From NCBI GenBank assembly GCA_026770705.1, contig JANJGN010000001.1, forward strand, positions 149,668,001 to 149,732,000: a stretch of 64,000 nucleotides of DNA. The letters run 5' to 3'. Under the pieces are notes generated by a model. It was not told where the DNA came from. It ran no database searches and saw nothing but the letters and a program-made list of their open reading frames with translations. The stretch is from Isurus oxyrinchus. Taxonomy: Eukaryota. The position numbers and the translations under genes were made by a program. Positions 7,991-49,467 of this stretch are shown here, piece after piece (position 1 is the stretch's first letter; every line of letters starts with the position of its first letter).

Positions 7991-8707
7991 AAGCGCACTG
8001 CTCAGTTACAATTGCACGTGAAAGCTCTGGTATCACTCTCCTTCTATATTGAGTTAATGAGTCTCAGGTGAAGTAAAGGTCATGATAAATGGCTTCAGAA
8101 TTCCTGTAATATGAAGAGTTGGAAGAACAAGTCAGCACAAGCTCCTGTTCTGACCAACATCCCAGTCACTTCACATGTGCAAACAAGGTCAAGTGAAGTT
8201 TCGTACCCAACACTAACTGACACTTCAAATCATGAAAAGTTGTAGCACAAAATCAGGACATTTAGCCCATCAAATCTGGGAGAAAGACACACACAAACTG
8301 AAACACAAGAGCACATTTAAATTTAAATACCTACTCAAATAACTCCAAAGACCCGAGTACATGCTGACACTCTCCTTCCTACCTTACCAGGCTGTGCCAT
8401 TCCAGATTCTGCCAATACCCTCTCTCCTTCAATACAATCCATTTCTTCTCACTCTTCCAAACATGTCAATCCTACCCATGAAAAGATTTCACCTGACTTC
8501 ACTCTTCTCAACCTCACTCCTAATGCTAAAGACAGCCATTCTGCCATTTATACACTGTAGGAGAGACTTTATGTTCCTTGAGAATACCCAATGTACAGAG
8601 CCCATAATTGCTGCTATTAAAAGTAACATTGAGAGGAAGGGGGCTAGGGCCAGTCTAGTAGCAATCAGGCTTGAGCAGGAGCTGAAGCAGGATCAAGGGA
8701 AGAGGTA

Positions 8708-8938
8708 AAAAAACAAAAACAGAATTACCTGGAAAAACTCAGCAGGTCTGGCAGCATCGGCGGAGAAGAAAAGAGTTGACGTTTCGAGTCCTCATGACCC
8801 TTCGTGGTCGAAGGGTCATGAGGACTCGAAACGTCAACTCTTTTCTTCTCCGCCGATGCTGCCAGACCTGCTGAGTTTTTCCAGGTAATTCTGTTTTTGT
8901 TTTGGATTTCCAGCATCCGCAGTTTTTTTGTTTTATCT
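8708..8938. mobile_element. Palindromic PLE-terminus insertion (95-bp perfect arms, 4-nt loop) with 13-bp TSD
   Basis: Arms at 8710-8804 and 8809-8903 around loop TGGT. TSD AAGGGAAGAGGTA at 8695-8707 and 8939-8951. Sequence matches the PLE ends at 44745-44875 and 47291-47386. Confidence 0.92.
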
Positions 8939-9444
8939 AAGGGAAGAGGTACCCTGTCTGTTGAGTTTTGTCAGCAAATCATGACATGCTCACTGAACAT
9001 CAAAGTAAAATGCTGTCAGCTGCCATATATGTAGACAGTTGTGGTAGGAACCAAGACATCAAAACACAGACTTCTTGATGTATGTGAAAAATGGAAATTA
9101 CTGAATAACAAAATGGCTCATTACACTTGGCATTTTGAAGCAATATTCAGACATTCCAGTAATACTTCCTATAAACTACAGGAATGACTGCATTATTTTC
9201 CATACTAAGTTAAGATACTGTAGCACTTACAGCTTGAATACTAATTGGATTTAATCAAAGAGGAAAAAATAATTTTGGACAGTACAAATTAGATACCAAC
9301 ATATTGCATTTTGCCAAGCATCAGAATAAATTACAAAATTTATATGATCACGCATACTAGATCGTAATGTAGAAAATGTTGGTTTTGGGAGTATGGGAAT
9401 ATTCTCTTGGTGTGACAAAGATAATAATACATCAGCTTTCTTAC

Positions 9445-9498
9445 CTGATCGAACTGCAAATCTTCACCTCTTTGCAATGATCTGGACAATGGTTTCTC
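9445..9498 (-). CDS. FRYL: FRYL next coding exon, 54 nt: EKPLSRSLQRGEDLQFDQ (phase 0/0)
   Basis: Acceptor TTTGTACTTTAG|GAG and donor CAG|GTAAGA. The peptide directly continues ...MAEPL in FRY/FRYL proteins. Confidence 0.95.
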
Positions 9499-9749
9499 CT
9501 AAAGTACAAATAATGAGAAAAGAAAATTGTGACTACACTGTGGCTTTCAAATAATAAAAATAATTCTCCATCAATAGTACTTGAGGCTATCGACCTTAAA
9601 CTACAAAAATGGAGTCATCTCATCAGCAGTTCTCACAAAAAAAAGATCCAACAGTGTGAAGGAAATTACTCCCAGGCTTTTTAAACAAACAAATAACTTT
9701 GACAACTTACCACTGTAACAAGGGACCAAATCAACAAAACACTGTCCAG

Positions 9750-10120
9750 GGACACAGAAGCAGAGTTAAGGTTTCGGGTCAATCACTTTTCATCAGAACT
9801 GGGAAAAGTTAGAAATTGAATAGACTTTAAGCAAGTGAAAGTGGGGGGTGGGGGATGGTGTGGAGAGGGTGGATAAAGAACATTTAATCTTTCCTGCCTT
9901 CTACCCTATTACAGACCTTCCCTTTTGATCCTGTCCCACCATCGCCCCTTTCATTTGTTTTAAATCTATTACATTTTTAACATTTCCAGTTCTAATAAAA
10001 TATTAACCTGAAAAGTGAACACTTGTTTCTCTCCCAGAGATGCTGTCTAACCTACTGGTATTTCCAGCATTTTCTGTTTTTATTTCAGATTTCCAGTCTC
10101 TCCAGTATTTTATTTTTCTG
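9750..10120. mobile_element. Older PLE pseudo-LTR pair in inverted orientation
   Basis: Minus copy about 9750-9880 with hammerhead motif at 9764-9800; plus copy about 9881-10118 with decayed motif and the CAGATTTCCAG tail. Confidence 0.7.
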
Positions 10121-10374
10121 ACTGTCAGCATTTGTTTAAGAATTAAATATTGTCAATTTCAGATTGTAGCAATGATAAAACCAGCAGGCAGGGGCTTCTT
10201 TTAAGCACTCTGCTGTTGTGCCTTCCAGGACTAGGAAAAGTTGTGCTTAGCTGACACCTCACTGCCTGAAGTACTAATTAGGACCCCTAACTAAAAGATC
10301 AATTCAACAGAAATAAACGCATTCTCAAGGATAAAAGGGCCTTACCTCCATACTGCTCAACAGATTTTGGCCAA

Positions 10375-11145
10375 GAACTTTGGAGGGGTAGCAGACAGTG
10401 AGGAGACAATTGACTGCAACTGGACAGATAGGCTAGCAACATAGGCAAACAAGTGGCAGACTGAATTCAATGCAGGGAACATGAGGTGATGCATTTGCAC
10501 TGGAGGGATAAGGAGAGGCAATATAAACTAAATTGCACAATTTCAAAGAATGTATAGATACAGAGGGTCCTCAAGGTTCATGTGCATAGGTCCTTGAAGG
10601 TGACATGGCATACTGAGGTATTGAGTAAAAAAAACAGGGAAGTTATGCTGAACCTTTATAAAGCTGTTTAGGACACATCTAGAGTACTATATCGTGTCCA
10701 GTTCTGGCCACCAGATGTTAGGAACAGTGTGAAGGCCTTGATAGGGTGCAGAGAAGATTTATCAAAACATTTCCAGGGATTGGGGATTTTAGCTACAAAG
10801 TTAGGTTGGAGAAGCTGTGGTTGTTCTTGGAGCAAAGAAGATTTGGAGTTTTGATAGACGTGTACAAGATTATTACAGGTTTAGATAGAAAAAGAAAAAG
10901 CTGTTCCCGTTAGTTAATGGTACAAGTACACAGGTCTGAGGTTTTGGACAAGAGATGCAGAGGGATATGAAGAAGAACTTTTTCTTTTAATGCAGTGAGT
11001 GGTAATGACCTGGAATGCACTGACTACGAAAGTGGCATGGGCACTTGAGAGAAATAAACTTGCAGGCGTGGGATGGAATGGGATGCTCTACAGAGAGTCT
11101 GTATGGACTCAATGGGCCAAATGGCTTCCTTCTCTGTTGCAATGG
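10375..11145 (+). mobile_element. Degraded CR1 3' portion
   Basis: KWQ.EFN, EVMLNLYK and VQFWPP motifs plus CR1 3'UTR. Confidence 0.85.
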
Positions 11146-13179
11146 CTCAAAAGGTTTAAAGGAATCATAGTGGAACTCAAAAAAAGAGAACATGGATTAG
11201 TCAGTGTTTCCAATATAGCATAGTCAAAAAAGTTATACCTTCTTGAATTCAATGTTGCTTTTTATTCTGATTGAGGGCATTTGTGGATTTTATATCTGAA
11301 AAGTCAGCGGAACTTGTTAGGCATAATTAGTAAGAGTACAGAAGGCTGACTGTTATCTGCCTTTCTTCCAGGATAACTCAAACATTCATGACAATCTGTC
11401 TTTTGAAGCTTTGTGTAGGAAGTGCAATAGAAGTTAAATAACTTGGTCGTTGGCAGGGTGAGGGTGGGGGGCTTTGAATATACTCGTAGCGTCCACCTGC
11501 TGATTCAATGGCCTGGCTGTAGAATGGATAAAGCATGAATTAGACCACCTGGAATGATGGAAATTACTGCTGGAACAACCCATGAAGATGACTTGGACGG
11601 AAGCTGGCTAATTGCTGATCAATGTGTATTATGGACAAAAATATACAGAAATGAACACACCTCATCAAGAGCTATTATCATAGACATTTAGGAATAAATT
11701 TCTTTTCATAGAATTATCAGACAGGCTGCAAAATGTACTGCTTAACTGCTAAGCAAAGCAACTATGTAAGTTGAGGCAAGATGATTATCATTTAAGCCAA
11801 CAGAGAAAGAACTAATGAATGTCAGATGTCTCAAAAGGCTGGCTATGAGACATTTTTTTTTTAAAAAGGATAGTGTTCATAATTCTGTTTTTCCACCCAC
11901 CCTCAAAAAAGAGATAACAGCTTATTCACTTGTATGTAGACGATGAACAAATGAAGGAGAAGCTATACTTGATGTAAGGTCACACAAATTAAAATAATAA
12001 ACTGTGAATCTGTGAAATTACAACAGGAAAGCAGGCAATTTGATGCATTATGTCTGTATATTCTTTATTCCACTTCCCTCCTTTTTGTCAATATCCTTTC
12101 AAATTTTTCTTTCTCTGCTCAGTAACTGCTAGTAAATCCTTGCATGTTTTAAGAACACTGTGTGAAAAATTTCTGCCTATTTGATGCATAACATACGATG
12201 TATTATACATTGCCAGTGTTGGAAAACTAGCAATAGGGTTTTTGTTTAATCCCTGGGCTGTCTACAAATCACCTACATCTTTGGCAGGAAAAGATACTCT
12301 GTGGCCCAAATTGAGAGTGTGCAATTGAGACATCGAATTACACAGAAATTACAACACCGAAACCAACTATTCAGTACAACCAGTATTCCGTGGTATCTGT
12401 CCTGTTTCCAAATTTCCTAATTTTCCTTTCTTTCAACCACCTACCTTCACTGATTCTTAAACGCTAACTGCTTCATTCACTAACTTTGAAACATTCTATA
12501 AATAAACTACAATACAGGAACAACATGCAGATACTGAACACAAATAAAATTTTGCAACTGAGATACAAAACTTTACACGCAACTCTTTTTCCTGTACTCA
12601 AATTATCTCCCTATCCCTACAGTTGTAACTGCTTTAATATCATGTCACTTAAATTTTCATAGAAGTTATTCAGCATTTTAATCAAATGCCTTCTGGAAAT
12701 TCATATATACAACATCCACTGCCTTGTTTTTCTGCAGAGCCTCTGCAATTTAATCAAAAAAGTGACGTACAACCCCTTCCTTATAAATCTATACTAATAC
12801 TCTCAAATCAGCCAAAATATTCACTAATTTCTATGTGTTTCTACAACTGAGGCAAGGCTACCTGGCCACTAATTTCCTGGGTTTATCATTTTTTTCCTTA
12901 TTTGAACAGGACTCAGGAATCTGAGCACTGATGGGAAAAGATAAGATTAAAAAAATACATATCAACATATACATGGTACAACATAACAACGCATGTCAAT
13001 TCAGGCAATTAGGACGCTTTGACACAGTATCAGCCTATGCCCTAGACATCAATAGTATAAATTACATCATGCTCCTTCTACACTACCAAACCATAGAAGT
13101 GCACTTCACAGCATTTCCATTTCTCACACTTCCGTCCTTGAAGCCTCTTAATTAAACTGATAACTTAAAGCTGATTTTT

Positions 13180-13575
13180 AAAAATTCTTTCATGGGATGT
13201 GGGTGTCGCAGGCAAGGTCAGCATTTGTTGCCCATCCTGAATTGCCTTTGAACTGAGTGGCTTGCTAGGCCATTTCAGTGGGCAATTAAAAGTCAACCAC
13301 ATTGCTGTGCATCTGGAGTCACATACAGCCAGCGCCGGTAAGGATGGCAAATTTCCATCTGTAAAGGACATTAGTAAACCAGGTGGGTTCTTACAACAAC
13401 CTATGGCATTCACGTGATCACTATTACAACGGCTAGCTTTATATTCCAGATTGTGTTGACGGAATTCAAATTCTACCAGCTGCTGTGGTGGGATCGCAGC
13501 ACATGTCCCCAGAGAATTAGCCCGGGCCTCTGGCTTACTAGGTCAATGACATTACAACTACACCACCATTTCCCC
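13180..13575 (-). mobile_element. tRNA-derived SINE, same family as 6876-7225
   Basis: Reverse complement of the SINE body and tail. Confidence 0.85.
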
Positions 13576-15213
13576 GAACAGTTCTGGACTCATGCCAACT
13601 AAGAACTAGATCGTGACTGCCATTATTTATTTCATTTAGACTTTAACTGCGACCAGGGACGGGGACCAGCCTCATTTGTTTCTGGGATGGATTGGAAGTC
13701 TGGTCCCCAAAGTAAGGTATAAACATTCAAAACCACTCTACCACTTAAGAACAATATTCTAAATAATTAGCTCTCAGACAAAGTTGTCAGTAGTCCTCAA
13801 GTGACTGATGGATTAAAATTTATAATTTATAGAGCATGATTAAGATGAAACAGCCCTGTCTTTTATAAACAGTATTTCATATCATTCAACTACAAACTAG
13901 CATTAATAACTAATAGAGACATCAGTCTACCAGATTGCTCCACATTACTAACTAGAGAAAGGATGGTAATAAGAGGCTACCATACGCAGTTAAAGTTGGG
14001 TGTGAGCATGTGTAAAGGTTTCAAATAAGTGCTAATATTCAAACCTGAAACCTCAGAAATTATTGATATTAGTTAAGTCCTATTCAGTAAATAGCAAATT
14101 TTAGGATCATAATAGTACTCTCAAGGTTTTATGGAAAACATATTCACTCGAAATACATTACCCCATGGCATTTTATTTATCAATAATTACTTTAAGGGAA
14201 ATAAAAAATCAAAGGAAGCTTTCTTTTTCTTTAAATACTTTTCCTTTATAAAAAGTGACAATCTGACCAGGAATTTACTCAATTTGGTTCTGAGAAACAT
14301 CAATATGAAGGCTAACACATAAGGAATTACTTTCTGATAGACTATTGCAGCGACTTCAATTATGGGCCGTAATCTTGGTGTCTCAGATAGCTCCATTATA
14401 AACAAGGAAACAACTTAAGCGATCTTAAGACACTTCAACCTCATCCAACCTCAGGAAACCAAGCTCAGGATGTAAAATGCCTGCCCAACAGAATAGTTTC
14501 TTGGGATCAGATATCTTTGGAGAGAATCCCATACACGCTTGAGATCTCAGTTATTTCATTTTTAATGCAATTATTCTAGAACACATGGCCACCCCCATCA
14601 TCAATATCATCAAAAAGAACTGGCAGGAGCAAGAAGTTAAGGATTTTCATGCTAATAAGAAAATTGATTTCAAAATTCCTTGCTGAAGACTCTAATTGAC
14701 TTTTATAAAGGTGAAGTACTTCAAATAAAAAGTAGACTTTGCTCCCTCTTTAACTTAGGTCATTTATTTTTGCGTTTTCAGGAAATTGATGATCTTTGTC
14801 TAGAATTAAACGTTTTGTTTTGCTTGCTCCTAAAATGTAATCATTAATTCCACTTCCATAACATGAGGCCTCTAACAAATGAAGAGGTGTATATGAACTG
14901 CATTACACACCCAGGCTGAGGATTGCTGCAGTTCCATGAAAATGGCCATACTAAAAACATCAGCACTTTTTGATGAAAATCAAGCAAATTTTAAAAGGTT
15001 TAGAATATTAATGTATATTTACATTATATAATTAATATTACATACCACATGCAATAATGGTATTTTTGTTACCCTCCTAGCAAAAGGCATTCTGCAATGC
15101 TAACATAAGGATCAACAGGTACTAGATAACCACTGGTACCTCACCAAAGCAGCCATTCTTTACAAGTGAACCTACAAAGCAAGTGTTCGCAGGCGATGTA
15201 ACCATGGTTGAGT

Positions 15214-18200
15214 ATCACAGAATCAGAGTGCAGAAGAGGCCCTTCGGCCCATCGAGTCTGCACTGACACATGAGAAACTCCTGACCTACCTACCTAATCT
15301 CATTTACAAGCACTTGGCCCATTGCCTTGAATGTTATGATGTGCTAAAAGCTCATCCAGGTACTTTTTAAAGGATGTGAGGCAACCTGCCTCCACCACCT
15401 CCCAGGCAGTGCATTCCAGACCGTCACCACCCTCTGGGTAAAAAAGCTTTTCCTCACATCCCCCTAAACCTCCTGCCCCTCACTTTGAAATTATGCCCCC
15501 TTGTGACTGACCCTTCAACTAAGGGGAACAGCTGCTCCCTATTCACCCTGTCCATGCCCCTCATAATCTTCTGCACCTCAATCAGATCACCCCTCAGTCT
15601 TCACTGCTCCAGCGAAAACAACCCAAATCTATCCAACGCTCTTCATAACTTAAATGTTTCATCTCAGGCAACATCCTGGTGAATCTCCTCTGCACCCCCT
15701 CCAGTGCAATCACATCCTTCCTACAATGTGGCGACCAGAACTGCACACAGTACTCTAACTGTGGCCTCACCAAGGTTCTATACAACTCCAACATGACCTC
15801 CCTACTTTTGTAATCTATGCCTCGATTGATAAAGGCAAGTGTCCCATATGCCTTTTTCACCATCCCACTAACATTTCCCTCCGCCTTCAGAAATCGATGG
15901 ACACACACACCAAGGTCCCTTTGTTCCTCAGAACTTCCTAGTGGCATGCCGTTCATTGAATACTTCCTTGTCAAATTATTCCTTCCAAAGTGTATCACCT
16001 CTCACTTTTCAGGGTTAAATTCCATCTGCCAATTAACTACCCATTTGACCATCCCATCTATATCTTCCTGTAGCCCAAGACACTCAACCTCACTGTTAAT
16101 CACCCGGCCAATTTTTGTGTCATCCGCAAACTTACTAAACCTACATAATCATCTATGTCATTTATATAAATGACAAATAATAGGAGACCGAGCACAGATC
16201 CCTATGTGCCGCCACTGGACACTGGCTTCCAGTCACTAAAACATCCTTCTGTCATCACCTTCTGCCTCCTACAACTAAGCCAATTTTGAATCCACCTTAT
16301 CAAAGTACCCTGTATTCCATGTGCATTCGCCTTCTTTATAAGTCTCCCATGTGGGAACTTGTCAAAGACTTTGCTGAAATCCATATAAACTACATCAACT
16401 GCATTACCCTCATCTACACACCTGGTCACCTTCTCAAAAAATTCAATCAAATTTGTTAGGCATGACCTCCCTCTGACAAAGCCATGCTGACTATCCCTGA
16501 TCAAACGTTGCCTCTCCAAGTGGAGATAGATACTCTCCTTCAGAAATTTCTCCAATAGTTTTCCTACCACTGATGTGAGACTCACTGGCCTGTAGTTCCC
16601 TGGCTAATCTCTACAACCCTTCTTAAATAGCAGAACCACATTAGCTGTTCTCCAGTCCTCTGGCACCTCCCCCGTGGCCAGAGAGGAATTAAAAATTTGT
16701 GTCAGAGCCCTGTGATCTCCTCCCTTGCCTCCCTCAGCAGTCTGGGACGCAAATCATCGAGACCTGGAGATTTGTCCACTTTTAAGCCTGCCAACACCTC
16801 CAATACTTTGTCACTCCCTATATCAATTTGCTTAAGAACCTCGCAGTCTCTCTTCCCAAGTTCTATACCTTCATCTTCATTCTCTTCAGTAAAGACGGAC
16901 GTGAAGAATTCGTTCAACATTATACCGATGTCCTCTGGCTCCACCCATAGACTGTCCCCTTGGTCCCTTATGGGCCCGACTCTTTCCCTGGTTATCCTCT
17001 TCCCATTGATATACTTATAGCATATCTTGGGATTTTTCCCTACTTTTACCAGCCAGAGCTTTCTCCTATCCCCTCTTTGCTCTCCTAATTGCTTTCTTAA
17101 GCTCCACCCTTCACTTTCTGTACTCCACTAAAGCCTCTGCTGAATTGCTTCCCTTGTACCTGCTAAAAGCCTCTCTTTTCCTTCTTATCGTAACCTGAAT
17201 ATCTCTGGTCATCCATGGTTCTCTGGGCTTGTTACTCCTTCCTATCACCCTAGAGGGAACATGTTGAGCCTGTACTCTTCCCATTTCCTTTTTGAATGCC
17301 CCCACTGCTCTTCTGTAGATTTCCCAACAAGTAGCTGTTCCCAGTCTACCTTGGCCAGATCCTGCCTTATGTTACTAAAATCCACTCTCCCCCCAATCCA
17401 AAACATTTTTTTTTAACTTGTCGATTTCTTTGTCCATAACTAGCTTAAATTGTACCATGTTGTGGTCGTTATCACTAAAATGCTCGCCCACCACCACCTC
17501 AGTCACCTGTCTGGCTCCATTCCCCAAAATTAAGTCCAGCAATGCCCCGTCCCTTGTTGGACCCTCTATATATTGACCTAAAAAGTTCTCCTGTACACAT
17601 TTCAAGAAATCCATTCCATCCAAGCTCTTAACACTATGTCTATCCCAATTAATGTTGGGAAAGTTGAAATCACCTAATATAAATTACCCTTATTGTTATT
17701 GTTTTTACACACCTCCACAAATTGTGCACATATTTGCTCCTCAATTTCCCACTGCCTATCTGGAGGTCTATAATAAACACCTGATAATGTGGTTGTCCCT
17801 TTTTTATTCCTAAGCTCTACCCACAAAGCTTCATTCAATGCCCCCTCCAAGATATCATCTCTCCTTATTGCAGTACCTGACTCCTTAACCAATACTGCAA
17901 TGCCTTCTCCTCTGTTACCCCCTCCCCTGTCTCGCCTGAAAATTCTAAATCCCGGAATGTAGAGCTGCCAACCATGCCCCTCCCACAACAACATCTCAGT
18001 GATGGCTGCTATATCACAATTCCACATGTCAATCCTCACCCTTAACTCATCCGTTTTACCTGTAATACTCCTGGCATTAAAGTAGAGCCCATCCAGCCTT
18101 GCCTTACTCCCTTGAAACTTAATGCAGCTGCGCTCCCTCTGACTTGATTGTTTCACTGTATTATGATGTGTCCCTATTCTGCTAACATTGTGTCCCCTCT

Positions 18201-18545
18201 CCCTGCCAAATTAGTTTAAACTCCTCCCAACAGCACTAGCAAACCCGCCCGCAAGGATGTTAGTCCCGCTCTGATTCAGGTGTAGACCATCCCACTTGTA
18301 CAGGTCCCACCTTCCCCAGGAACGGTCCCAGTGATCCAGGAATCTAAAACCCTCCCTCCTGCACCAACTCTTAAGCCACGTATTCATCTGCGCTATTCTC
18401 CTATTTCTGAGCTCACTAGCACGTGACACTGGGAGTAATCCAGAGATTACAACCAGAGAGGTCTTGCTTTTTAGTCTACTGCCTAACTCCTTGATTTCTT
18501 GATGCAAGGCCTCATCCCTCTTTCTACCTCTCTCATTGGTACATC
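15214..18545 (-). mobile_element. CR1 LINE: ORF1 SGNH-esterase part, APE endonuclease, RT and 3' tail, disrupted
   Basis: ORFs 18211-18561 (VVISGLLPV...DGLHLN), 17674-18156 (YFNARSI...GVYYRPP), 16202-16585 (QHGFVRGRSCLTNL) and 15594-15998. Confidence 0.95.
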
Positions 18546-21395: not shown

Positions 21396-22700
21396 TATTG
21401 AATATCAGAGGTTAGAGATGGGTCAAGTAAAAATATTTTGACAAGCATATGTAACTATGGTAATCCTCTTTATTAAATAATTCATAATTTAAGCTGCCCT
21501 CCCTCATACCACATGTTCAGTTACAATAATTTTTGTTACAATCATTTCTTCTTGATTACAATAATGTTCACTGGTCGGCCATCAAATTAAACTTGACAAC
21601 TACCATGTGGTTATACCAAGTATAACATCTCAATAGCAAAACCATATAAAATTGTTCTGTCAGTCTTAGAAACAAAATAAAACAATTTGATGTTAACATG
21701 CATTGAGAAATATACACAATCGGTCATTTTGTGTATTTGCATTTGGAGAAAGAAGAGAAATTCAACAAGTCCATTGTGTACCCTCTTCGCAATTGTAATT
21801 TGGTCACAATTGGGAATAACTCACTTCAAATGCCTGGACTTTTCAAGTCACTAGCACCTGGGCCTTTTGAACACCCTTGCAGCATTGGCAGTGATTGAGG
21901 AATCCATATGAAAATGTCAGTCAAAACCTTACTATCGAAATGCGCATCTGGTCATCAGTCTAATTTTTTCATTAAAATACTGAATTAGAATTCAACTGCT
22001 GAAAATAAAAGACTATCACAATCAAGCGCATACCATCAAAAGTTGAAGAACTACATTTGGCAAATAGCCAACATTATTTATGCTTTCCAGGTTTGGTGAA
22101 GTGAAAAATAAAGTCACTCAGGAGCCAGCAACTAACAACAGCATTTTCCCCAATGACTGCTTCTTAATACTAAATTATTAATACTGCATATGTAGAAGCT
22201 TTGAATCTGGCATGATAAAAGGTGCCTATTGAGCTTGGGTCACATTCGTAAAAAAATCTGCCTTCATCTTCAACCACCTGTAATGGCACACTTCGCTTAA
22301 TTTTCACTGCTTGGATCTTCAGTTCAGGGTGGTTCTTAGCAGGACTTATGCCCGAACAATCAATGATAGTGAGATGCCAAGGCATCATCTTGTTCACTAA
22401 CATCTTAGGCCTTCTATTAAATATAACATTAATCTAAGTGGCCAAAAATTGCCCCAATTGCAAGATGGTTCTGGTCTAGGACAGTCACAGAAAAATATTT
22501 TGTGAAGTATTTTGGATCATCAAAACATTGAGAAAAGCATAATATAAATGCAAATTTGTTATTTTAATATTCACAGAAAAAATAATGACTGGCAAAATGT
22601 TCATCTAGTTATTGTTTATGTTTGAAATCCTGAGTGCAAAGCATTTTGGGAGGTCTGAATATTGTGAAAAACACATTACAAACAAATTAGTTATTTTATT

Positions 22701-22827
22701 CAGAGATAAAAACAAAAAAACTGGATGCTGGAGTCAAAGGGTCATGAGGACTCGAAACGTCAACTCCTTTCTTCTCCGCCGATGCTGCCAGACCTGCTGA
22801 GTTTTTCCAGGTAATTCTGTTTTTGTT
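22701..22827. mobile_element. Short inverted PLE-terminus insertion of the young family, with TSD
   Basis: Reverse-oriented long terminus (22701-22732) fused to a forward piece from 22733 (GTCAAAGGGTC...CTGTTTTTGTT). TSD TTAGTTATTTTATT at 22687-22700 and 22828-22841. Confidence 0.85.
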
Positions 22828-22959
22828 TTAGTTATTTTATTATTCAGAGAAATCAAAAAAGGGGTAAAATCTTAATCTAGGTATTGCTTATCTTTGAAAT
22901 TTATTCTCAGATAATGCAAAGTTCCCAAAATTAGTCATCATAAAAATAGTTATGTAACA

Positions 22960-28558: not shown

Positions 28559-28644
28559 ATTTAAAAACGCAGCGTGCTACAACGTTCTATGTTGATATGT
28601 CTTTGGCCCATAGTAAGACTATAATCTAACCTTGGTGGCTCTGT

Positions 28645-30089: not shown

Positions 30090-33000
30090 AAGTTCATGGG
30101 CGGCTCGGCTGTACAGGAGGGGAGGAAGAAGAAGGGGAGAGATACAGTGATAGGGAATTCATTGGTTAGGTGAACAGACAGGCATTTCCGTGACCGTAGA
30201 CATGACTCCAGGATGGTATTTTGCCTCGCTGGTGCCAGGGTAAAGGATGTCACAGAGCAGCTGGAGGACATTCTTCTGGGGGAGGGTGATCAGCCAGAGA
30301 TCATGGTCCACAATGGTAACAATGACTTAGGGAGGAAGGGGGATTTAGCCTTGCAATCAGAATTTAGGGAACTAGGTAGAGAATTAGCAAGCAGGACTTC
30401 AAATGTAGTAATCTCTAGATTATTCCCAGTGCCACGTGCCACTGAGTTCAGAAATAGGAGGATAAGACAGATGAACATGTGGCTGGAAAGATGGTGCAGG
30501 AGGGAGGACTTCAGATTCCTGGGACATTAGGACCGGTTCTAGGGGAGATGGCACCTATATAAGCCAGACAGGTTGCACCTGGACAGAGCTGGGACTGAAT
30601 TCCTTGCGGGGCATTTTGCTGGAGCTATTGGAAGGGCTTTAAACTAACTCGGCAGGGGTGTGGAAGCCAAGAGAAAATATCAGAGAGGAGTACCAGAGCG
30701 CACAAAATACAGGGAGGGGCGGACAGCACTAGCATAGAGAATAGTAAGTTAATAGATAAAGTTGGGGCAAGGCAGGAAGTAACAAAATCTAAATCAGGGT
30801 TAATATGCATGCATGTGAGTGCACAGAGTATAGTAAATAAAATTGGGGAGTTACAGGTGCAGATTGCCATGTGGAAATATGATGATGTGGTGATAACAGA
30901 GTCCTGGCTCAAGGAAGTGCGGAGCTGGGTGCTAAAGATTCCTGGGCACAAGGAGTTCAGAAGAGATAGGAAAGGAAGGAGAGGAGGAAGGGGCGTGACG
31001 GTATTGGCTAAGGAGAGCATTGCAGTACTGGAGAGACAGGATGTCCCAGAGTGTTCAAGGGCAGAATCAATTCGGCAAGAGTTAAGGAACAAAAAAGGTG
31101 CAATTACATTGCTCGGTGTAGTCTATAGACTGCCAAATAGTGAGAGGGATGTAGCATAGTTATAATGGGGAACTTTAATTACCCGAATGTAGATTGGCTC
31201 AGTGGTAGTGTAAAGGGTGGAGAGGTGTAAAAATTCCTAGATTGTATTCAGGAGAATTTTCTACAGCAGTATGTGTCCATTCCAACAAGAAAAGACCTGT
31301 TTTTTGGAAATGAGATAGGCCAAGTAGATCAAGTGTCAGTGGGGGAACATTTAGAAGGCAGTGATCATTGTATTGTACATTTTAGGATAATGATAGAAAA
31401 GGACCAAAGGCAATCCAGAGTAAGAATAATTAACTGGGCAAGGGCTGACTTCGATGGTGCAAGAAGGAGCTGGGCCAGATAGACTGAAACAAAAGATTGG
31501 TGGGAAAAACTGTAGCCAAACAATGGGCTACCTTCAAAAAATAATTGGTTCAGGTACAGTCAAGGTATATTTCATCAAAAGGGAGAGGAAGGGCAATCAA
31601 ATCAAGAGCTCACTGGATGAAAAAGGAGATTGAAATTAAGATAAAGAAATAAAAGTGTGCTTAAGATAGGTGTCAGGTAGAAAATACAATGACAGTTCAG
31701 AGGGGAGGTGAGAAAGCAAATAAAAGAAGCGAAGAGGAATTATGAGAAAAGACTGGCAGCCAACATAAAGGGGAATCCCAAAGGCTCCTACAGACATATA
31801 AATAGTAAAAGGGCGGTAAAAGGAGGAGGAGACTGATTAGGGACCTAAAAGGGAGTTTACACATGGATGAAGGGGCCATGGCTGAGGTATTAAATTAATA
31901 TTTTGCATCCGTCTTTACCAAGGAGGTAGATGCTACCCAGGCCATGGTGACAGATGAGGAAACTCTGTCACAAGAAGGGTTCAAAATTGACAAGCAGGAA
32001 GTGTTTACTTGCTGAGTTTTTCCAGGTAATTCTGTTTTTGTTTTGGAAGTGTTTATTGGACTGTCAATACTTAAAGTTGACGGCACTGGGACCGGATGAG
32101 ATGTATCCAAGGATATCGAAGGAAGTGAGAGTAGAAATTGCAGTGGCACTGATCATAATCTTTCAGTCTTACCTAGGCTTTGGGGTGGTGGCAGAGGACT
32201 GGAGAGTTGCAAACATTACGCCCATGTTCAAAAAAGTTGTATGGATAAGGCGAGCAATTACAGATCAGTCAGGTTAACTTCAGTGGTGGGCAAGATTCTA
32301 GAAACAATTATTTGCGATGGAATTAGTGGTCATATGGAAAAAAAAGGTTGATAAGGAAGAGCCAGCATGGACTGCTAAAGGGGAAATCATGTTTAACTAA
32401 CTTGGAGTTTTTTGAAGAGGTAACAGGAAAGGTTGTACGGGGGGGTAATGCTGTTGATGTGGTATACATGAACTTTCAAAAGGCATTTGACACCGTGCCA
32501 CACAACAGACTTGAGAGAAAAATTATTGCTCATGGAATAAAAGGGACAGTAGCAATGTGGATACAAAATTGGCTGAAAAATAGGAAGCATAGAGTAATGG
32601 CCAACATATATTTTTCGGGCTGGAGAAAGGTTTGTAGTGGAGTTCCCCAGGGGTCGGTATTGGGACTTTTGCTTTTCCTGATATATATTAATGACCTAGA
32701 TCTTGGTGTGTAGGGGACAATTTCAAAGTTTGTGGATGATACGAAGCTTGGAAGTGGTGTGAACTGCAAGGAAGACAGTGTGGAACTTCAAGAGGACATA
32801 GGCAAGTTGGCGGAGTAGGCAGATAGGTAGCAGATAAAGTTCAATGTGGAGAAGTGTGAGGTGATGCCTTTTCATAGGGAGAAAATGGACAGACAATATA
32901 AAATAAGGACTGAAATTTTGAAGAGGGTGCAGAAGCACAAAGACTTGCGTGTATATGTGCATAGCTCATTGAACGTGACAGGACAGACACAGACAGAAGT

Positions 33001-35274: not shown

Positions 35275-35625
35275 GCAGATGTTGGTGGTACTCCTTTCTT
35301 TAACCATATAGGTCGCAGATGGATCTAAATGGCCTCCTAGGCCATTTCAAAGAGCAGTTCAGAATCATCCATATGGCACTGGATTCACAAATAGGTCAGA
35401 CCAGGCAAGGATGACAGGTTTCCTCCCATAAAGGATGCAAATAGGGTCTTTGCAAATATCCAAAGGCTTCATGTTCACTTTACTGATTACTACTAAGATC
35501 ACAAATAATTTTTAGTTTAAATATTTTTTTAAATGAATTCAAATTCTCCAACATCCATGCTGGAATTTGAACTTTCTTCTCTGGATTATTAGCCTCGTGC
35601 CCATGACCACTACACCATCATACTG
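35275..35625 (-). mobile_element. Degraded tRNA-derived SINE of the 6876 family
   Basis: Matches 13240-13570. Confidence 0.65.
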
Positions 35626-40920: not shown

Positions 40921-42073
40921 TAACATCACGAGGGCGGGGGGCATGCGTGCGCAGGGGAGGGCAGGCGTGCAAGGTGTTTGTTCAAAAAGCAGGCAATTGC
41001 CCTTTTGCTTTGGTGTAGCCTGCATCTCACTGGATTGAGAGACATAAAAGATGATAGTCAGGCCTGCACTGTGAGCAGGGAAAATACTAACTTTATTACT
41101 CACCATGCAGAATGCCAGTGAGGCTCAAGCTCAGTTTTGATTTTGTGATGGAAGAAGCAGCTGGAAGATTTTCCTAGTTTGCAGCTACAGGAAGAAATCT
41201 AGTGGTCCTCACAGAGTCTTGTGACAGAAAGCAGTTACATTGGAAGTTATGAAAAGGCAGTTGTGTATCTACTGGCAATCAAAACAAACAGCTGAGGCAG
41301 CCACAGTCATAACATATTAAATAAAAGTTGGAGGTTCACTTAGCCAAAAAGCTAATCGAAGGAGCCCCATAAAAATATTACCAAGATCAGTTGAACACAA
41401 AGGGGAATTAAAATGAATTTTGTAGGGCTGTGGTATATTTTACTGGTTGGAACCGACAGAAGTGAAAGGACCTTCAAAATTCTTGTAATGTATAAGGGAA
41501 TTCATGGTGGGGAGTAGAGACTACAATTGAGCTCATAGCATAAGTAATTATGAACTATAGTGTTACTGTAATGGTGTTTGCTTTGTTTAATTCTTATATG
41601 CAGATGCCAGTCTTCAGCAATTCAATTCACTCCACATGATATCAAGGAACGGCTGAATGCACTGGATACTGCAAAGCCTATGGGCCCTAACAATATTCAG
41701 GCAATAATACTGTTGACTTATGCTCCAGAACTTGCCACACCCCTAGCCAAGCTGTTCCAGTACAGCAACAGTACTGGCATCTACCCAGCTATGTGGAAAA
41801 TTGCCCAGGTATGTCCTTTACACAAATAGCAGGACAAATCCAACCCGGCTAATTACCTCCCCATTGGTCTGCTCTCGATCATCAGTAAAATGATGGAAGG
41901 GATCATCAGCAATGCTTTCAAGTGGCAATTGCTTAGCAATAACCTGCTCACTGACGCCCAGTTTGTGGTCTGCCAGGGCCACTCAGATCCTGCCCTCATT
42001 ACAGCCTTGGTTCAAACATGGGCAAAAGAGCTGAATTCCAGAGGCGAGGTAAGGGTGACTGCCCTTGACATCA

Positions 42074-44535
42074 CTGAATTGCACAGTGCAGAAGAGGCCC
42101 TTCGGCTCATCGAGTCTGCACTGACATGCGAAAAACCTGACCTACCTACCTAATTCCATTTACCAGCATTTGACCAATAGCCTTGAATGTTATGACGTGC
42201 CAAGTGCTCATCCAGGTCAGTTCAAAAGGGTGTGAGGCAACCTGGGAGCATATTTCAGACCGTCACCATCCTCTGGGTCAAAAGGTTTTTCCTCATGTCC
42301 CCCCAAACCTCCTGTCCCTCACCTTGAACTAATGTCCCCTTGTGACTGACCCTTCAACTAAGGGGAACAGCTGCTCCCTATCCACCCTGTCTTTGCCCCT
42401 CATAACCTGTACACCTTGATCATTCTTTTCTGCCCCAACGAAAACAACCCACACCTATCCAACCTCTCTTATAACTTAAATGTTTCATCCCAGGCAACAT
42501 CCTGGTGAATCTCCTCTGCACCTCGTCCAGTGCAATCACATCCTTCCTATAATGTGGTGGCCAGAACTGCACACAGGACTCCAGCTGTGGCCTCATCAAG
42601 GTTCTATACAACTCCAACATGACCTCCCTACTTTTGTAATCTATGCCTCCATAGGCAATTGTCCCATAAGCCTATTTCACCACCCCATTAACATGCCCCT
42701 CCATCTTCAGAGATCCATGGACACACATGCCAAGGTCCCTTTGTTCCTCAGAACTGCCTAGTGTCATACTATTCATTGAATACTTCCTTGTCAAATTACT
42801 CCTTCCAAAGTGAATCACCTCACACTTTTTAGGACTAAATTCCATCTGCAACTTATCTGCCCATTTAACCATCCCTTCTACATCTTCCGTAACCCAAGAC
42901 ACTCAACCTCACTGTTAACCACCCAGTCAATCTTTGTGTCGTCCATAAACTTAATAATTTGTTACCCCCCCCCCCCAACATAGTCATCTATGTCGTTAAT
43001 AGGGGTCTCAGCACAGATCCCGGTGGTACACCACTGGACACTGGCTTCCAGTCACTAAAACATCCTACTGTCATCACCCTCTGCCTCCTACAACTAAGCC
43101 AATTTTGAATCCACCTTATCAAATTACCCTGTATCCCATGTGCATTTGCCTTCTTTATAAGTATCCCATGTAGGACCTTGTCAAAGGCTTTGCTGAAATC
43201 CATATAAACTACATCAACTGCACTACCCTCATCTACACACCTGGTCACCTCCTCAAAAAATTCCATCAAATTTGTTAGGCATGACCTCCCTCTGACAAAG
43301 CCATGCTGACTATCTCTGATCAAACCTTGCTTCTCCAAGTGGAGATAGATTCTCTCCTTCAAAATTTTCTCCAAAAGTTTCCCTGCCACTGACGTGAGAC
43401 TCTCTGGTCTGTAGTTCCCTGGCTTATCTCGACAACCCTTCTTAAATAGCGGAACCACATTAGCTGTTCTCCAGTCCTCTGGCAACTCCCCCGTGGCCAG
43501 AGAGGAATTAAAAATTTGGGTCAGAGCCCCTGCAATATCCTCCCTTGCCTCCCACAGCAGTCTGAGTCACAAATCATCCAGACCTGGAGATTTGTCCACT
43601 TATAAGCCTGCCAACACCTCCAGCACCTTGCCACTCCCTATATTAATTTGCTCAAGAACCTCGCATTCTCTCTCCCCGAGTTCCAGACCTTTATTCTCAT
43701 TCTCTTCGGTGAAGACGGAAGTGAAGTATTCATTCAACGCTCTAGCGATGTCCTCTGGCTCCACCCATAGATTGCACTCGTTGGTCCCTAATGGGCCCTA
43801 CTCTTTCCCTGGTTGTCCTCTTCCCATTGACATACTTAAAGAATATCTTGGGATTTTCCCTACTTTTACCAGCCAGAGCTTTCTCATATCCCCCCTTAGC
43901 ATTCCTAATTGCTTTTTTAAGCTCGACCCTTCACTTTCTGTACTCCACTAATGCCTCCGCTGATTTGCTCCCCTTGTACCTGCTAAAAGCCTCTCTTTTC
44001 CTTCTCATTGTATTCTGAATATTTCTGGTCATCCATGGTTCTCTGGGTTTGTTACTCCTTCCTATCACCCCAGAGGGAACATGTTGAGCCTGTGCCCTCC
44101 CTATATCCTTTTTGAAGCCCCTCACTGCTCTTCTGTAGGTTTCCCCACAAGTAGCTGTTCCCAGTCTACCTTGGCCAGATCCTGCCTTATTTTACTAAAA
44201 TCCACTCTCCCCCCAATCCAAAACATTTTTTTGCAACTTGTCTATTTCTTTGTCCTTAACAAACTTAAATTGTACCAAGTTGTGTTAGCTATCACTAAAA
44301 TGCTCTCCCATCACTACCTCAGCCACCTGTCCGGCTTCATTCCCCAGAATTAGGTCCAGCATTACACAGTCCCTTGTTGGGCCCTCTACATATTGACCTA
44401 AAACGTTCTCTCCTGCACACATTTCAAGAAATCCACTCCATCCAAACCCTTAACACTATGTCTATCCATATTAATGTTGGGAAAGTTGAAATCACCTAAT
44501 ATAATTAGTATCATCATTTTTACACACCACACACA
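42074..44535 (-). mobile_element. CR1 ORF2 and 3' end nested in lineage-B LINE
   Basis: ORF 42988-43485 (PEDWRTANVVPLFKKG...); highly similar to 15214-17700. Confidence 0.93.
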
Positions 44536-44844
44536 TAAAGGCAACATTTGACCAAGTGTGGCATCAAGGAGCCCTAGCAAAACTGGAATCAATGTAAATC
44601 GGGGAACACTTTCCGTTGGTTTCTGTCATACCTAACACAAAGGAAGATGGCTGCAGTTCTTGGAAATCGGTCATCTCACCTCCAGGACATTACTACAAGA
44701 GTTCCTCAGAATAATGTCCTAGGCCCAACAATCTTTAAACACAGAGATAAAAACAAAAAAACTGCAGATGCTAGAAATCCAAAACAAAAACAGAATTACC
44801 TGGAAAAACTCAGCAGGTCTGGCAGCATCGGCGGAGAAGAAAAG

Positions 44845-44883
44845 AGTTGACGTTTCGAGTCCTCATGACCCTTCAACAGAACT
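44845..44883 (-). ncRNA. Minimal type I hammerhead ribozyme-like motif, variant core CUGUUGA
   Basis: AGTT-CTGTTGA-A-GGGTC-ATGAG-GACTC-GAAA-CG-TC-AACT. Confidence 0.65.
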
Positions 44884-44921
44884 GAGTGGATCCAAGGAAG
44901 GGTTGAAATATAAGCTGGTTT

Positions 44922-44924
<3 letters not shown>

Positions 44925-44979
<55 letters not shown>
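44925..44979. repeat. (GT)n microsatellite inside the PLE pLTR
   Basis: Pure GT run, absent from the plus-strand pLTR copy. Confidence 0.95.
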
Positions 44980-44981
<2 letters not shown>

Positions 44982-45330
44982 GTGGGGGGGGGGATGTGAT
45001 TTGGGTGGGGGGAGAGAAGTGGAGGGGGTTGGTGTGGTTGTAGGGACGGACAAGCAGTGATAGAAGCAGATCGTCAAAAGATGTCACAGACAAGAGAACA
45101 AAAGAACACATAGGTGTTAAAGTTGGTGATATTATCTAAACGAATGTGCTAATTAAAAATGGACGGTAGGGCACTCAAGGTATAGCTCTCGTGGGGGTGG
45201 GGGGAGCATAAAAGATTTAAAAAGATTTAAAAATAATGGAAATAGGTGGGAAAAGAAAACTTTATACAATTTATTGGAAAAAAACAAAAGGGGGAAGAAA
45301 CAGAAAGGGGGTGGGGATGGAGGAGGGAGC

Positions 45331-46455
45331 TCAAGACCTAAAGTTGTTGAATTCAATATTTAGTCCGGAAGGCTGTAAAGTGCCTAGTCGGAAGATGAGG
45401 TGTTGTTCCTCCAGTTTGCGTTGGGCTTCACTGGAACAATGCAGCAAGCCAAGGACAGACATGTGGGCAAGAGAGCAGGGTGGAGTGTTAAAATGGCAAG
45501 CGACAGGGAGGTTTGGGTCAGTCTTGCAGACAGACCGCAGGTGTTCTGCAAAGCGGTCGCCCAGTTTACGTTTGGTCTCTCCAATGTAGAGGAGACCACA
45601 TTGGGAGCAACGAATGCAATTGACTAAGTTAGGGGAAATGCAAGTGAAATGCTGCTTCACTTGAAAGGAGTGTTTGGGCCCTTGGATAGTGAGGAGAGAG
45701 GAATGAAGGGGCAGGTGTTACATCTTTTGCGTGGGCATGGGGTGATGCCATAGGAGGGGGTTGAGGAGTAGGGGGTGACGGAGGAGTGGACCAGGGTGTC
45801 CCGGAGGGAACGATCCCTACGGAATGCCAATAGAGGGGGTGAAGGGAAGATGTGTTTGGTGGTGGCATCATGCTGGAGTTGGTGGAAATGGCGGAGGATG
45901 ATCCTTTGAATGTGGAGTCTGGTGGGGTGATAAGTGAGGACAAGGGAGACACTATCATGTTTCTGGGAGGGAGGAGAAGCCGTGAGGGCGGATGCGCGGG
46001 AGATGGGCCAGACATGGTTGAGGGCCCTGTCAACGACCGTGGGTGGAAAACCTCGGTTAAGGAAGAAGGAGGTCATATCAGAGGAACTGTTTTTGAAGGT
46101 AGCATCATCGGAACAGATGCGACGGAGGCGAAGGAACTGAGAGAATGGGATGGAGTCCTTACAGGAAGCGGGGTGTGAGGAGCTGTAGTCGAGGTAGCTG
46201 TGGGAGTCGGTAGGCTTGTAATGGATATTGGTGGACAGTCTATCACCAGAGATTGAGACAGCGAGGTCAAGGAAGGGAAGGGAAGTGTCAGAGAAGAACC
46301 ACGTGAAAATGATGGAGGGGTGGAGATTGGAAGCAAAATTAACAAATTTTTCCAAGTCCTGACAAGAGCACGAAGCAGCACCGAAGTAATCATCGATGTA
46401 CCGGAGAAAGAGTTGTGGAAGGGGGCCGGAGTAGGACTGGAACAAGGAAAGTTCT
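45331..46455 (-). pseudogene. PLE RT C-terminus plus GIY-YIG endonuclease (frameshifted, 5'-truncated)
   Basis: ORFs 45657-46550 and 45331-45660. Confidence 0.88.
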
Positions 46456-46563
46456 ACATACCCCCTACTCCCCAACCCCCACCCATGCCCACGCAAAAGA
46501 TGTAACACCTGCGCCTTCACTTCCTCTCTCCTCACCGTCCAAGGGCCCAAACACTCTTTTCAA

Positions 46564-46893
46564 GTGAAACAACATTTCACTTGCATTTCCCCCAACTTAG
46601 TCTACTGCATTCGTTGGTTCCAATGCTGTCTCCTCTACATTAGAGAGACCAAACGTAAACTGGGCGACCGCTTTGCAGAACACCTGCGGTCTGTCCGCAA
46701 GAATGACCCAAACCTCCCTGTCGCTTGCCATTTCAACACTCCACCCTGCTCTCTTGCCCACATGTCTGTCCTTGGCTTGCTACATTGTTCCAGTGAAGCC
46801 CAACGCAAACTGGAGGAACAACACCTCATCTTCCGACTAGGCACTTTACAGCCTTCCGGACTGAATATTGAATTCAACAACTTTAGGTCTTGA
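46564..46893 (+). pseudogene. PLE GIY-YIG endonuclease domain, inverted copy
   Basis: LVYCIRWFQCCLLYIRETKRKLGDRFAEH...GLNIEF. Confidence 0.85.
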
Positions 46894-47284
46894 CCTCCCC
46901 CCTCCATCCCCACCCCCCCTTTCAGTTTCTTCCCCCTTCCTTTTGTTTTTTCCAATAAATTATATAGATTTTTCTTTTTCCCACCTATTTCCATTATTTT
47001 TAAATATTTTTAAATCTTTCATGCTCCCCCCACCCCCACTAGAGCTATACCTTGAGTGCCCTACCATTCATTCTTAATCAGCACATTCGTTTAGATAATA
47101 TCACCAACTTCGACACCTATCTGTTCCTATGTCCTGCTGTCTGTGACATCTTTTGATGATCTGCTTCTATCACTGCTTTTGCCTACAACCACACCACCCC
47201 CCTCCACTTCTCTCCTCCCACCCAACCCCCCCACCACCACCACCTTAAACCAGCTTATATTTCAACCCTCCCTGGGATTCACCT

Positions 47285-47323
47285 GGTTCTGTCGAAGGGT
47301 CATGAGGACTCGAAACGTCAACT
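47285..47323 (+). ncRNA. Minimal type I hammerhead ribozyme-like motif, variant core CUGUCGA
   Basis: GGTT-CTGTCGA-A-GGGTC-ATGAG-GACTC-GAAA-CG-TC-AACT; predicted cleavage after 47319. Confidence 0.65.
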
Positions 47324-49467
47324 CTTTTCTTCTCCGCCGATGCTGCCAGACCTGCTGAGTTTTTCCAGGTAATAATTCTGTTTTTGCTGCCAACAATCTT
47401 TAGTTGCTTCATCAATGGTTTTCCCTCCATCACAAGGTTAGACGTAGGGTGTTCGCTGATGATTGCAGCAACATTCACAACTCCTCAGACACTGAAGCAA
47501 TCCATATCCAAATGCAGCAAGACCTGGACAATATCCAGTCTTGGGCTGACAAGTAGCATCTACGCTGCAAGTGCCAGGCAATTATCATCTGCAACAAGAG
47601 AGAATCTAACCATCGCCCCTTGATTTTCAATAGCATTATCACCGCTAAATCCCCCACTATCAACATCCTTGGAGTTACCATTGACCAGAAACTGAACTGG
47701 ACTAGCCATATAAATATTGTGGCTACAAGAGCAGGTCAGAGGCTAGGAATCCTATGGCGTGTAACTCATCTCCTAGCTCCCCAAAGCCTGCCCACAATCT
47801 ACAAAGTACAAGTCAGGAGTGTGGTGGAATACTCTTCACTTGCCTGAATGAATGCAGCTCCAACAACACTCAAGAAGTTTGACGCCATCCAGGATAAACC
47901 AGTCCATTTGATTGGAAACCCATCCACAAACATTCACTCCCTCCACCACCAATGCACAGTAGCAGCAGTGTGTACCATCTACAAGACGCATGGCAGGAAC
48001 TCACCAAGGCTCCTTAGACAACACATTCCAAACCCACAACAATTACCATCTAGAAGGACAAGGCAGCAGATAGATGGGAACACCACCACCTGGAAGTTGC
48101 CCTCCAAGCCACTCACCATCCTGACTTGGAAATAACGCTGTTCCTTCACTGTCACTGGGCTAAAATCCTGGAGCTCCCTCCCTAACAGCACAGTGGGTGT
48201 GCCTACACAACAGCGGCTACAGCGGTTCAAGGAGGCAACTCACTGCCACCTTCTCAAGGGCAATTAGTGATGGGCAATAAATGCTGACCTCGCCAGCGAA
48301 GCCCACATCCCTCAAATGAATAAAGAAAACCCTGTGGTGTAGGTGTTGGTTGATTGCTGCGGGTTTGGATTTGTTTTTAAAATGTTAATGGCCCATAACA
48401 GGATCATAACAACATGGCCCTTGTCAATTTGTTAAATTCAAAACATTGCACAGATGAAATGATTTGTGTAATGTATATATAGTATACAGTACTTGAGACA
48501 AACAAGCACTGAACAGTTTATTTTTCACATTTATTCCAAGAACATACAATAAGTCCTCTGACGCAATGTTGATTCATTGGAATGTTTTGGCAGTAACAGA
48601 AATTCATTAGAAAAGTGCAAACCCAACAGAATGCCAGCACTTATAGTAAATAAGTCATTTTTTCAAACTGCTATACACTCTTAACTCTACCAGTAAGGCT
48701 CTGGAGGAAAAATCTGTAGATATTATCAGGTTTGATATTCTTTTGTGCCACTCTTGTACAAAATTCTAGGATATATAACATTAAGCAATTGCATCTATGA
48801 GCATTACACAGCTGTCAAATAACCCAACTGATATTCATCTGATATCCTATCGCTTTTAAATTCCCGTCAGCTCTGCTACAACAATGGAGCTAAATTGTTT
48901 GATCTAGCCTAGCCATTTTAGTCATCTGTATGCCCTTTTTTGACCAGCCACTTTTGACATGGTCTAACCAGCACCGAGGGAAACAAAATAGGCAGAACTG
49001 CAAGTGTTAAACACAGCAATAAATACTTTCAGTGCCATAATCTTAAAAAGGCAGTCAGGAAAAGGTTTAGCATGCTCAATATGCTAATACTGATTAACAT
49101 ATTGTTGCAATTATGAGGTTTATAAGATTATAATATTTTTGGACTATGGCTTTACATTTAGGGTAAATTAAGGGGTTGTGTGGCTTTATCTGAAGCCTAC
49201 CTGGCAGTAAGCCTGGTGGTTTGATTGGCAGAGATCAAAGCAAGGTGTAGATTGTTTTACTGAGATGAAAGTGTAAAGTTTTTCCACTTGTAGGATCTGA
49301 GTCCCCTAAAGTCCCAGAAAGGGGTAATAGCAAAAGGGTTATAAACAGTTATCCTGTAAACTATCCATTTACTTATAAGGTGAAAGAAAGTTGGGGTCAA
49401 CAATAGCTAATTAACACTTCTGCCTGAGTGCAAAGTTAATTTGTCTCATGTCATGGTGGGACAGAGG

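Follow-up and report, generated by a model that had tools for sequence, protein, structure and literature searches.

In a 64,000-nt stretch of the Isurus oxyrinchus genome (assembly GCA_026770705.1, contig JANJGN010000001.1, positions 149,668,001 to 149,732,000 of the forward strand; hereafter the window), copies of a retroelement identified from its sequence as an endonuclease-bearing Penelope-like element (PLE) consist of two opposed, 5'-truncated arms enclosed by a single pair of target site duplications (TSDs). One arm stops at a short terminus of the element, and the other runs on through a 'tail' to a long terminus. This pairing held in every TSD-called bipartite copy of the window family and of a second family, suggesting that it is close to a rule, and the content of the arms makes it very likely that both ends of a staggered break prime complementary DNA (cDNA) on RNA, i.e. 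twin priming.

One long and one short terminus per inverted copy

The first-pass annotation had described three TSD-flanked insertions of opposed 5'-truncated pieces, each with one short and one long terminus, and a fourth insertion with the short terminus only. All four were confirmed: the bipartite insertions have exact 13-nt TSDs, verified arms and mixed termini (3/3), and the fourth has an 11-nt TSD. Their parts, with positions in the window, are as follows (the hammerhead-like motif is described below).

8695..8707: insertion 1, left TSD copy, 13 nt (exact-repeat TSD search)
8708..8804, minus strand: insertion 1, short-terminus arm, plus two extra T; 5' end inside the hammerhead-like core
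8805..8806: insertion 1, junction, two bases from neither arm
8807..8938, plus strand: insertion 1, long-terminus arm; 5' end inside the hammerhead-like core
8939..8951: insertion 1, right TSD copy
22688..22700: insertion 2, left TSD copy, 13 nt (exact-repeat TSD search)
22701..22732, minus strand: insertion 2, inverted arm, the tail alone (long terminus), 32 nt
22733..22828, plus strand: insertion 2, short-terminus arm, 96 nt; 5' end inside the hammerhead-like core
22829..22841: insertion 2, right TSD copy
31997..32055, plus strand: insertion 4, a single 37-nt piece (32008-32044) with the short terminus, inside an older host repeat; 11-nt TSD copies at 31997-32007 and 32045-32055
44725..44737: insertion 3, left TSD copy, 13 nt
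44738..46464, minus strand: insertion 3, long-terminus arm, 1.7 kb
44738..44784, minus strand: insertion 3, tail, running from just past the last shared G of the short terminus (44785) to the long terminus
46460..47389, plus strand: insertion 3, short-terminus arm, 0.93 kb
47390..47402: insertion 3, right TSD copy

In insertion 1 two added bases separate a 97-nt short-ended arm from the 132-nt long-ended arm that it meets head-to-head. The arms of insertion 2 (TSD 13 nt, or 14 if an ambiguous T is counted) do not overlap, about 5 nt of the element being missing between them, so that the 3' end is not duplicated and the copy resembles an L1-type inversion. The left arm of insertion 3 (44738..46464) carries the second half of the reverse transcriptase (RT), the CX4CxxC linker region and a GIY-YIG endonuclease frameshifted against the RT, followed by a 3' region with a (CA)n run, the hammerhead motif and the tail; the right arm (46460..47389) carries the linker, the endonuclease, the 3' region and the hammerhead motif. 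These arms overlap by 5 nt at their junction (46460-46464), and three non-element bases precede the right TSD copy at the short end. The (CA)n run (about 27 units, 44927-44980) is absent from the right arm.

When the same TSD search was applied to 3000 random position pairs, repeats of at least 12 nt occurred in none and of at least 11 nt in one. Host-repeat paralogues, colinear across the site and with one TSD copy, supply an empty site for insertion 3 (51057-51377, 79%) and for insertion 4 (63337-63032, 87%); for insertions 1 and 2 no paralogue spanning the site was found within the window. All copies of this element in the window are 5'-truncated, and of the four young copies whose 3' end can be seen, three are bipartite. 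Long/short pairing in those three alone would have a chance of 0.125 if ends were independent at 50:50.

The sample was widened to 87 loci encoding relatives, drawn from public contigs, many of which belong to one second family whose ends fall into two groups about 58 nt apart. It shares almost no DNA with the window family, only about 18 nt of the hammerhead region. Its five TSD-called bipartite inverted copies (L005, L015, L042, L060 and L081), at distinct sites and with TSDs of 13-16 nt with zero or one mismatch, were all long/short; a TSD score of at least 11 was reached in 3 of 400 random pairs. Across both families the TSD-called copies were long/short in 8/8 cases (P = 0.004 against independent ends at 50:50), and in 10/11 (P = 0.006) when copies lacking a TSD call were counted, among them L059 and a small insertion in L026, both long/short. 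Since nine long and eleven short ends occurred among 20 open reading frame (ORF)-bearing arms for which no partner was found, 50:50 is a fair null. Single-piece copies also bear either end: insertion 4 is short, an older relative at 7239-7375 is long, and L054 and L082 are long with TSDs.

A flanking inverted repeat was present at 17 of the 87 loci. Seven loci with an arm at or nearly at a contig end were excluded (L003, L024, L031, L036, L041, L047 and L049); L011, L074, L084 and the main L026 element, which belong to other families and had no TSD, were not classed; L051 and L085 have an inverted long arm, and their sense terminus was not found. L081 and the small L026 insertion were added later from the analysis of ends.

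It is very improbable that the arms are independent insertions at one spot, or that the pairing arose by chance. PLE endonuclease can nick its own pseudo-long terminal repeat (pLTR; PMC11167929), and one locus, L053, looks like two unrelated short-ended pieces. However, the first-pass annotation had named halves with a TSD each as the mark of independent insertion, and in 8/8 copies one TSD pair surrounds both arms, with no inner duplication seen; the empty sites of insertions 3 and 4 and the P-value above also speak against such origins.

In the ORF-bearing long/short copies of the second family (L005, L015, L042, L059, L060 and L081) the tail lies on the shorter, inverted arm in 6/6, unlike insertion 3, where it lies on the longer arm. 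L060 was considered as a tail-only arm and rejected: its long arm is split by a later 460-nt insert of another repeat (L060:5779-6239), placed exactly at the tail start with about 3 nt duplicated. L080-L087 are animal-type PLEs on contigs of two bacterial genome bins, where they are probably host DNA.

The element, its termini and the hammerhead-like motif

The identification as an endonuclease-bearing PLE, already made in the first-pass annotation, is borne out by RT motifs (46460-45747 in insertion 3, and in a copy at 1-560), the GIY-YIG endonuclease and 408 protein homologues. The best of these are 62-68% identical and carry PF00078/PF26215, several carry PF01541, and the best named homologues of the insertion 3 protein come from cartilaginous fishes; the direct Pfam match of the endonuclease was weak (GIY-YIG E = 0.016, below the cut-off; none at 0.001). 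The left-arm endonuclease of insertion 3 has the CCHH motif (CxxC inside the core, both histidines), the right-arm endonuclease has lost the first cysteine, and the CX4CxxC linker occurs in both arms. Passages of PMC8557442 place a CX2-5CxxC linker between RT and endonuclease in Neptune and Nematis and describe it as absent in Penelope/Poseidon. By its linker and its vertebrate occurrence the window element would be of Neptune type, preferred over Nematis solely because the groups known from vertebrates are Neptune and Poseidon. Its copies show the pLTR arrangement, tail and TSDs of endonuclease-bearing PLEs. The description of the family as young holds for the last 90 nt, with 0-2 differences among four arms, and fails for the arms of insertion 3, considered below. 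An exact 30-nt pattern search of viral and metagenome contigs found nothing, a protein-profile scan of viral contigs returned 22 pattern matches with no relative among them, and two raw-read runs from other organisms (X21, X22) gave 0 matching reads.

The two termini are discrete. In the three bipartite window copies the long ends lie 40, 42 and 47 nt beyond the last shared G of the short end, or 34-47 nt beyond the actual short ends. In contigs of two public runs (82,485 and 68,222 aligned at 85% likeness, related families included), among the 12 of 504 entries listed, which record single ends and not pairs, loose ends with varied flanks pile up in 569 and 293 contigs at 44781-44782, the short terminus, and in 309 and 184 contigs at 44756, a relative's form of the long terminus; both termini are therefore family-wide. 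These ends and those of the second family uphold the earlier claim of two defined termini. The U-richness once ascribed to them does not extend to a rule: the tail has 60% U in the window family vs 29% in the second, and the corresponding anole site is AC-rich (PMC11167929). A special stem-loop around the start sites was rejected, pairing being not beyond shuffles in either family: the tail can pair with upstream sequence within the terminal 89 nt (z -1.3), and 158 nt of the window family and the second-family start-site region gave z +0.6 and z -1.3. Pairing between target and RNA was likewise rejected as the cause of the two ends, since the target letters past the ends are unrelated, with a few ambiguous bases at most.

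Two further observations concern this terminal region. Public contigs contain head-to-tail joints of a 127-138 nt unit reaching from the hammerhead edge to the long terminus (44746-44883), retrozyme-like or partial-tandem in form. A short reading frame starts from an ATG (8856-8888, plus strand); about 15 nt ahead of the short terminus its stop coincides in part with a splice-donor-like site, and the frame could be a first exon of the ORF.

The motif upstream of the termini is the following.

44845..44883, minus strand: minimal type I hammerhead-like motif, recognised by eye after the description in passages of PMC4209133

It lies 64 nt upstream of the short terminus, with stem I at 44883-44880, the core at 44879-44873 and a predicted cut after 44849 (minus strand). 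By eye it has a 4-bp helix I, a 5-bp helix II and a palindromic ACGU helix III, in agreement with the definition of such motifs by a short first helix, a second helix bearing an unpaired 5' base and a palindromic third, and a monomer fold recovers helices I and II. An Rfam search gave no hammerhead match, only four matches at chance level. The canonical hammerhead core is CUGANGA; the young arms that reach core position 6 depart from it, with U where A is usual, and a family-wide letter table has no row for A at this position among 40 of 89 rows listed. The motif may be an inactive or variant ribozyme.

In the first-pass annotation, dimerising hammerheads could hold two RNAs together, each primed near its 3' end at a U-rich site. 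We consider this origin improbable, and the tether is its weakest part. The palindromic stem III would suit it, passages of PMC4209133 state that PLE pLTR hammerheads are thought to act as dimers, and insertion 3 may have had two templates. A symmetric RNA dimer, however, gives no reason for long/short pairing; Naiads, as portrayed in passages of PMC8557442, have the same inverted layout and one-sided tail without canonical hammerheads; and in vitro initiation is internal rather than near the RNA 3' end, and catalytic hammerhead mutants leave insertion unchanged, in an assay of which dimerisation was not part (PMC11167929). The second-family sites that are not U-rich and the U at core position 6 count against it as well.

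The 5' ends of three short arms and of the older copy (8804, 8807, 22733 and 7239) cluster at most 6 nt from the 5' edge of the hammerhead-like motif, in stem I or the core (register 44873-44885) and not at the predicted cut. At 44883 loose ends occur in public contigs (117 and 121, among the rows listed), joints are frequent at 44873-44884, and past 44885 the depth drops fivefold, a drop to which related families may add. The cluster may reflect either the 5' end of an RNA or a point at which reverse transcription stops, and transcription starting at the hammerhead edge would explain it. In D. virilis, according to passages of PMC2377424, the transcript starts within the upstream pLTR.

Beyond the four insertions, which the first-pass inventory had right, the window contains three relatives that it missed.

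1..560, minus strand: further 5'-truncated copy with RT core motifs, its 3' end beyond the window; upper boundary approximate
7227..7387, plus strand: older single-piece relative (7239-7375), long terminus only, 12-nt TSD copies
10010..10117, plus strand: decayed relative of the terminal region

No inverted arm was found at the 5' side of the copy at 1-560, the identity of the older relative is about 80%, and a TSD was looked for around 10010-10117 and none was found. A perfect 81-nt inverted repeat with a 34-nt spacer (49468-49663), inside a LINE-like repeat, was rejected as a member of the family and is unrelated to the PLE.

Nesting of the arms and the source of their templates

Seven of the ten long/short copies are non-nested, the long arm having the tail and the short arm having upstream sequence that is absent from its partner. 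Folding back of a cDNA cannot yield such arms, and both were therefore copied from RNA. This upholds, as very likely, the proposal of the first-pass annotation that both strands of the staggered break prime cDNA on RNA, and it accords with in vitro work in which purified PLE protein cuts and extends both target strands (PMC11167929). The short arm is nested within the long one in insertions 1 and 3 and L026; the arms overlap in 8/10 copies, and in 2/10 (insertion 2 and L081) the inverted arm is the tail alone, ending at or before the short site.

The published alternative is a self-primed, fold-back intermediate with inverted repeats that the endonuclease resolves off-centre, leaving the tail on one side. 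Passages of PMC3846280 propose self-priming from palindromes at inverted junctions, and passages of PMC8557442 ascribe the tail to endonuclease resolution. The three nested copies would fit, and the L026 junction is perfectly palindromic, but the non-nested copies are beyond pure cDNA fold-back (template jumps back to RNA could still accommodate them), and the tail borders coincide with the two internal sites at which reverse transcription starts in vitro (PMC11167929). We regard this route as unlikely.

We think it probable, though with limited confidence, that a predicted protein dimer (PMC11167929) primes both break ends at two internal sites of fixed position, which probably lie on a single RNA molecule. 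The dimer would cut the target with a stagger of 11-16 nt, and each target 3' end would start reverse transcription at one of the two internal sites that bound the tail. The two priming events would be coupled and served by one RNA, and the start sites would therefore have to differ, as two active sites cannot hold the same bases. Where the downstream enzyme stopped at the upstream one, a tail-only arm would result; where it displaced the upstream cDNA, the arms would overlap. The cDNA ends would be joined by host repair through microhomology or with a few extra bases (the junctions of insertions 3 and 1 have a 5-nt overlap and two added bases, respectively), and priming from only one end would leave a single-piece copy, long or short. 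To our knowledge PLE RT lacks RNase H, so that the template would stay intact. Twin priming on one RNA predicts tail-only arms (2/10), a long-ended arm that tends to be the shorter of the two (7/10) and arms of the same source, the last being clear in L005 and modest in L060. Within the 32-34 copies compared, the arms are each other's closest relatives in L005, L015, L042 and L060, and first or second in L059.

A number of observations weigh against this account. For the short/short copy, L053, no TSD was found, and each arm has closer matches than its partner, which ranks 7th in one direction and 12th in the other. In insertions 1 and 3 and L026 it is the longer arm that runs to the long terminus. 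L005 alone has a clear nearest-neighbour margin (95.1 vs 92.9%); that of L060 is modest (94.9 vs 93.8%), and those of the other three, which had one or two same-sample copies, are at most 1.3 points; conversion between nearby inverted arms could produce such likeness. In vitro, the start sites are the same for top and bottom strand, and strand coupling was not among the tests (PMC11167929). A single RNA would also need strand displacement over up to about 900 nt. Insertion 3 has 58 differences between its arms over 895 aligned positions (6.5%). Of 18 changes in the endonuclease stretch, 10 are synonymous (P = 0.008-0.027 vs neutral simulations), and the last 95 nt hold one difference vs 57 in 800 upstream (P = 0.015), which points to two templates or to one tandem transcript whose units differ. 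Part of this divergence is explained by decay after insertion, several conserved residues being changed and some letters private. The family-wide letter table, with a depth bias near the edge, has both letters at high frequency at 44875 and the left-arm letter at low frequency at 44889 and 44773.

Twin priming on two RNAs, one per subunit of the predicted dimer, with an asymmetric dimer or the order of cutting setting long against short and the hammerhead having no role, would accommodate the divergence and synonymous excess of insertion 3 and would form overlapping arms without strand displacement; a weak excess of second-family arm differences with both letters in other copies (26/82 vs 18.7 expected if private) leans the same way. 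It requires an extra rule against long/long and short/short copies (0/8 among those with called TSDs), and against it each arm in L005 and L060 has its partner as closest relative, a result that transcripts from a single locus would also give. We give it a minor share of probability, larger than that of fold-back.

Published layouts and the meaning of the tail

The one-sided tail on inverted PLE insertions is already known as structure. Passages of PMC8557442 and PMC3846280 describe pLTRs in direct or inverted order, an optional tail of 30-40 bp, often at only one end of inverted insertions, and a TSD; the layout also appears in passages of PMC2377424 and PMC8969392, and how PLEs build tandem and inverted structures is called an open question in those of PMC8557442. 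Canonical PLEs (Penelope/Poseidon, Neptune, Nematis and Pen2a of Adineta vaga), as far as these passages go, likewise join an inverted, 5'-truncated copy to the main one, with a single TSD pair enclosing both and the tail at one end only, and do not differ structurally from the copies here. In contrast, the same passages say 'often' or 'optionally' and give no counts of end pairs, whereas here the TSD-called copies are uniformly long/short; the tail measures 40-47 nt in the window and about 58 nt in the second family, and the TSDs 11-16 nt, compared with 8-10 nt in Pen2a (PMC3846280, in part). A literature search, mostly of papers outside subscription, found none with a count of end pairs or with twin priming proposed for PLEs, and PMC12910113 has no content on PLE structure. 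As in the window, the Poseidon element PAc of Anolis carolinensis has two tail-bounding start sites downstream of a pLTR hammerhead; it differs in its clade and its AC-rich start region, and its description does not treat inverted insertions, its single use of 'inverted' referring to a blocking nucleotide (PMC11167929). Non-LTR retrozymes and solo pLTR pieces, as presented in passages of PMC4209133 and of bioRxiv 10.64898/2026.07.22.740005, are likewise short non-coding hammerhead pieces from PLE ends and also occur close together on opposite strands. Retrozymes, however, form head-to-tail tandem arrays, whereas here the pieces face each other head-to-head between TSDs and, in insertion 3, contain coding sequence.

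The comparison with L1 is closer than the first-pass annotation had allowed. It had contrasted the duplicated 3' end of the PLE copies with L1, yet two of the ten long/short copies, insertion 2 and L081, have the non-duplicated form of an L1 inversion. In L1 twin priming both target ends prime on RNA, leaving an inverted piece inside one TSD pair; the first primer lies at the poly(A) end, and the second anneals by homology at a variable internal place. The PLE copies of both families differ in that their starts are fixed and most of their arms overlap. They have no poly(A), and both ends lie at fixed element positions while the targets are unrelated, unlike priming by poly(A) or homology.

As anatomy we find the copies ordinary, the layout itself being published. 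What is added is a small count suggesting that the pairing is near a rule, together with an argument for RNA-templated arms; the strict long/short pairing and the non-nested arms link start sites defined in vitro to inverted copies in genomes, and they offer annotators a practical rule by which to place PLE boundaries and TSDs. We propose, tentatively, that the pairing is strict across distant families because one RNA is held by the two active sites of a dimer that start about 40-60 nt apart, with the downstream enzyme displacing its neighbour's product or stalling. If true, the tail would measure how far apart the active sites sit on the RNA, and a single mechanism would account for inverted pLTRs, for the one-sided tail and for tail-only inversions of the L1-like kind.

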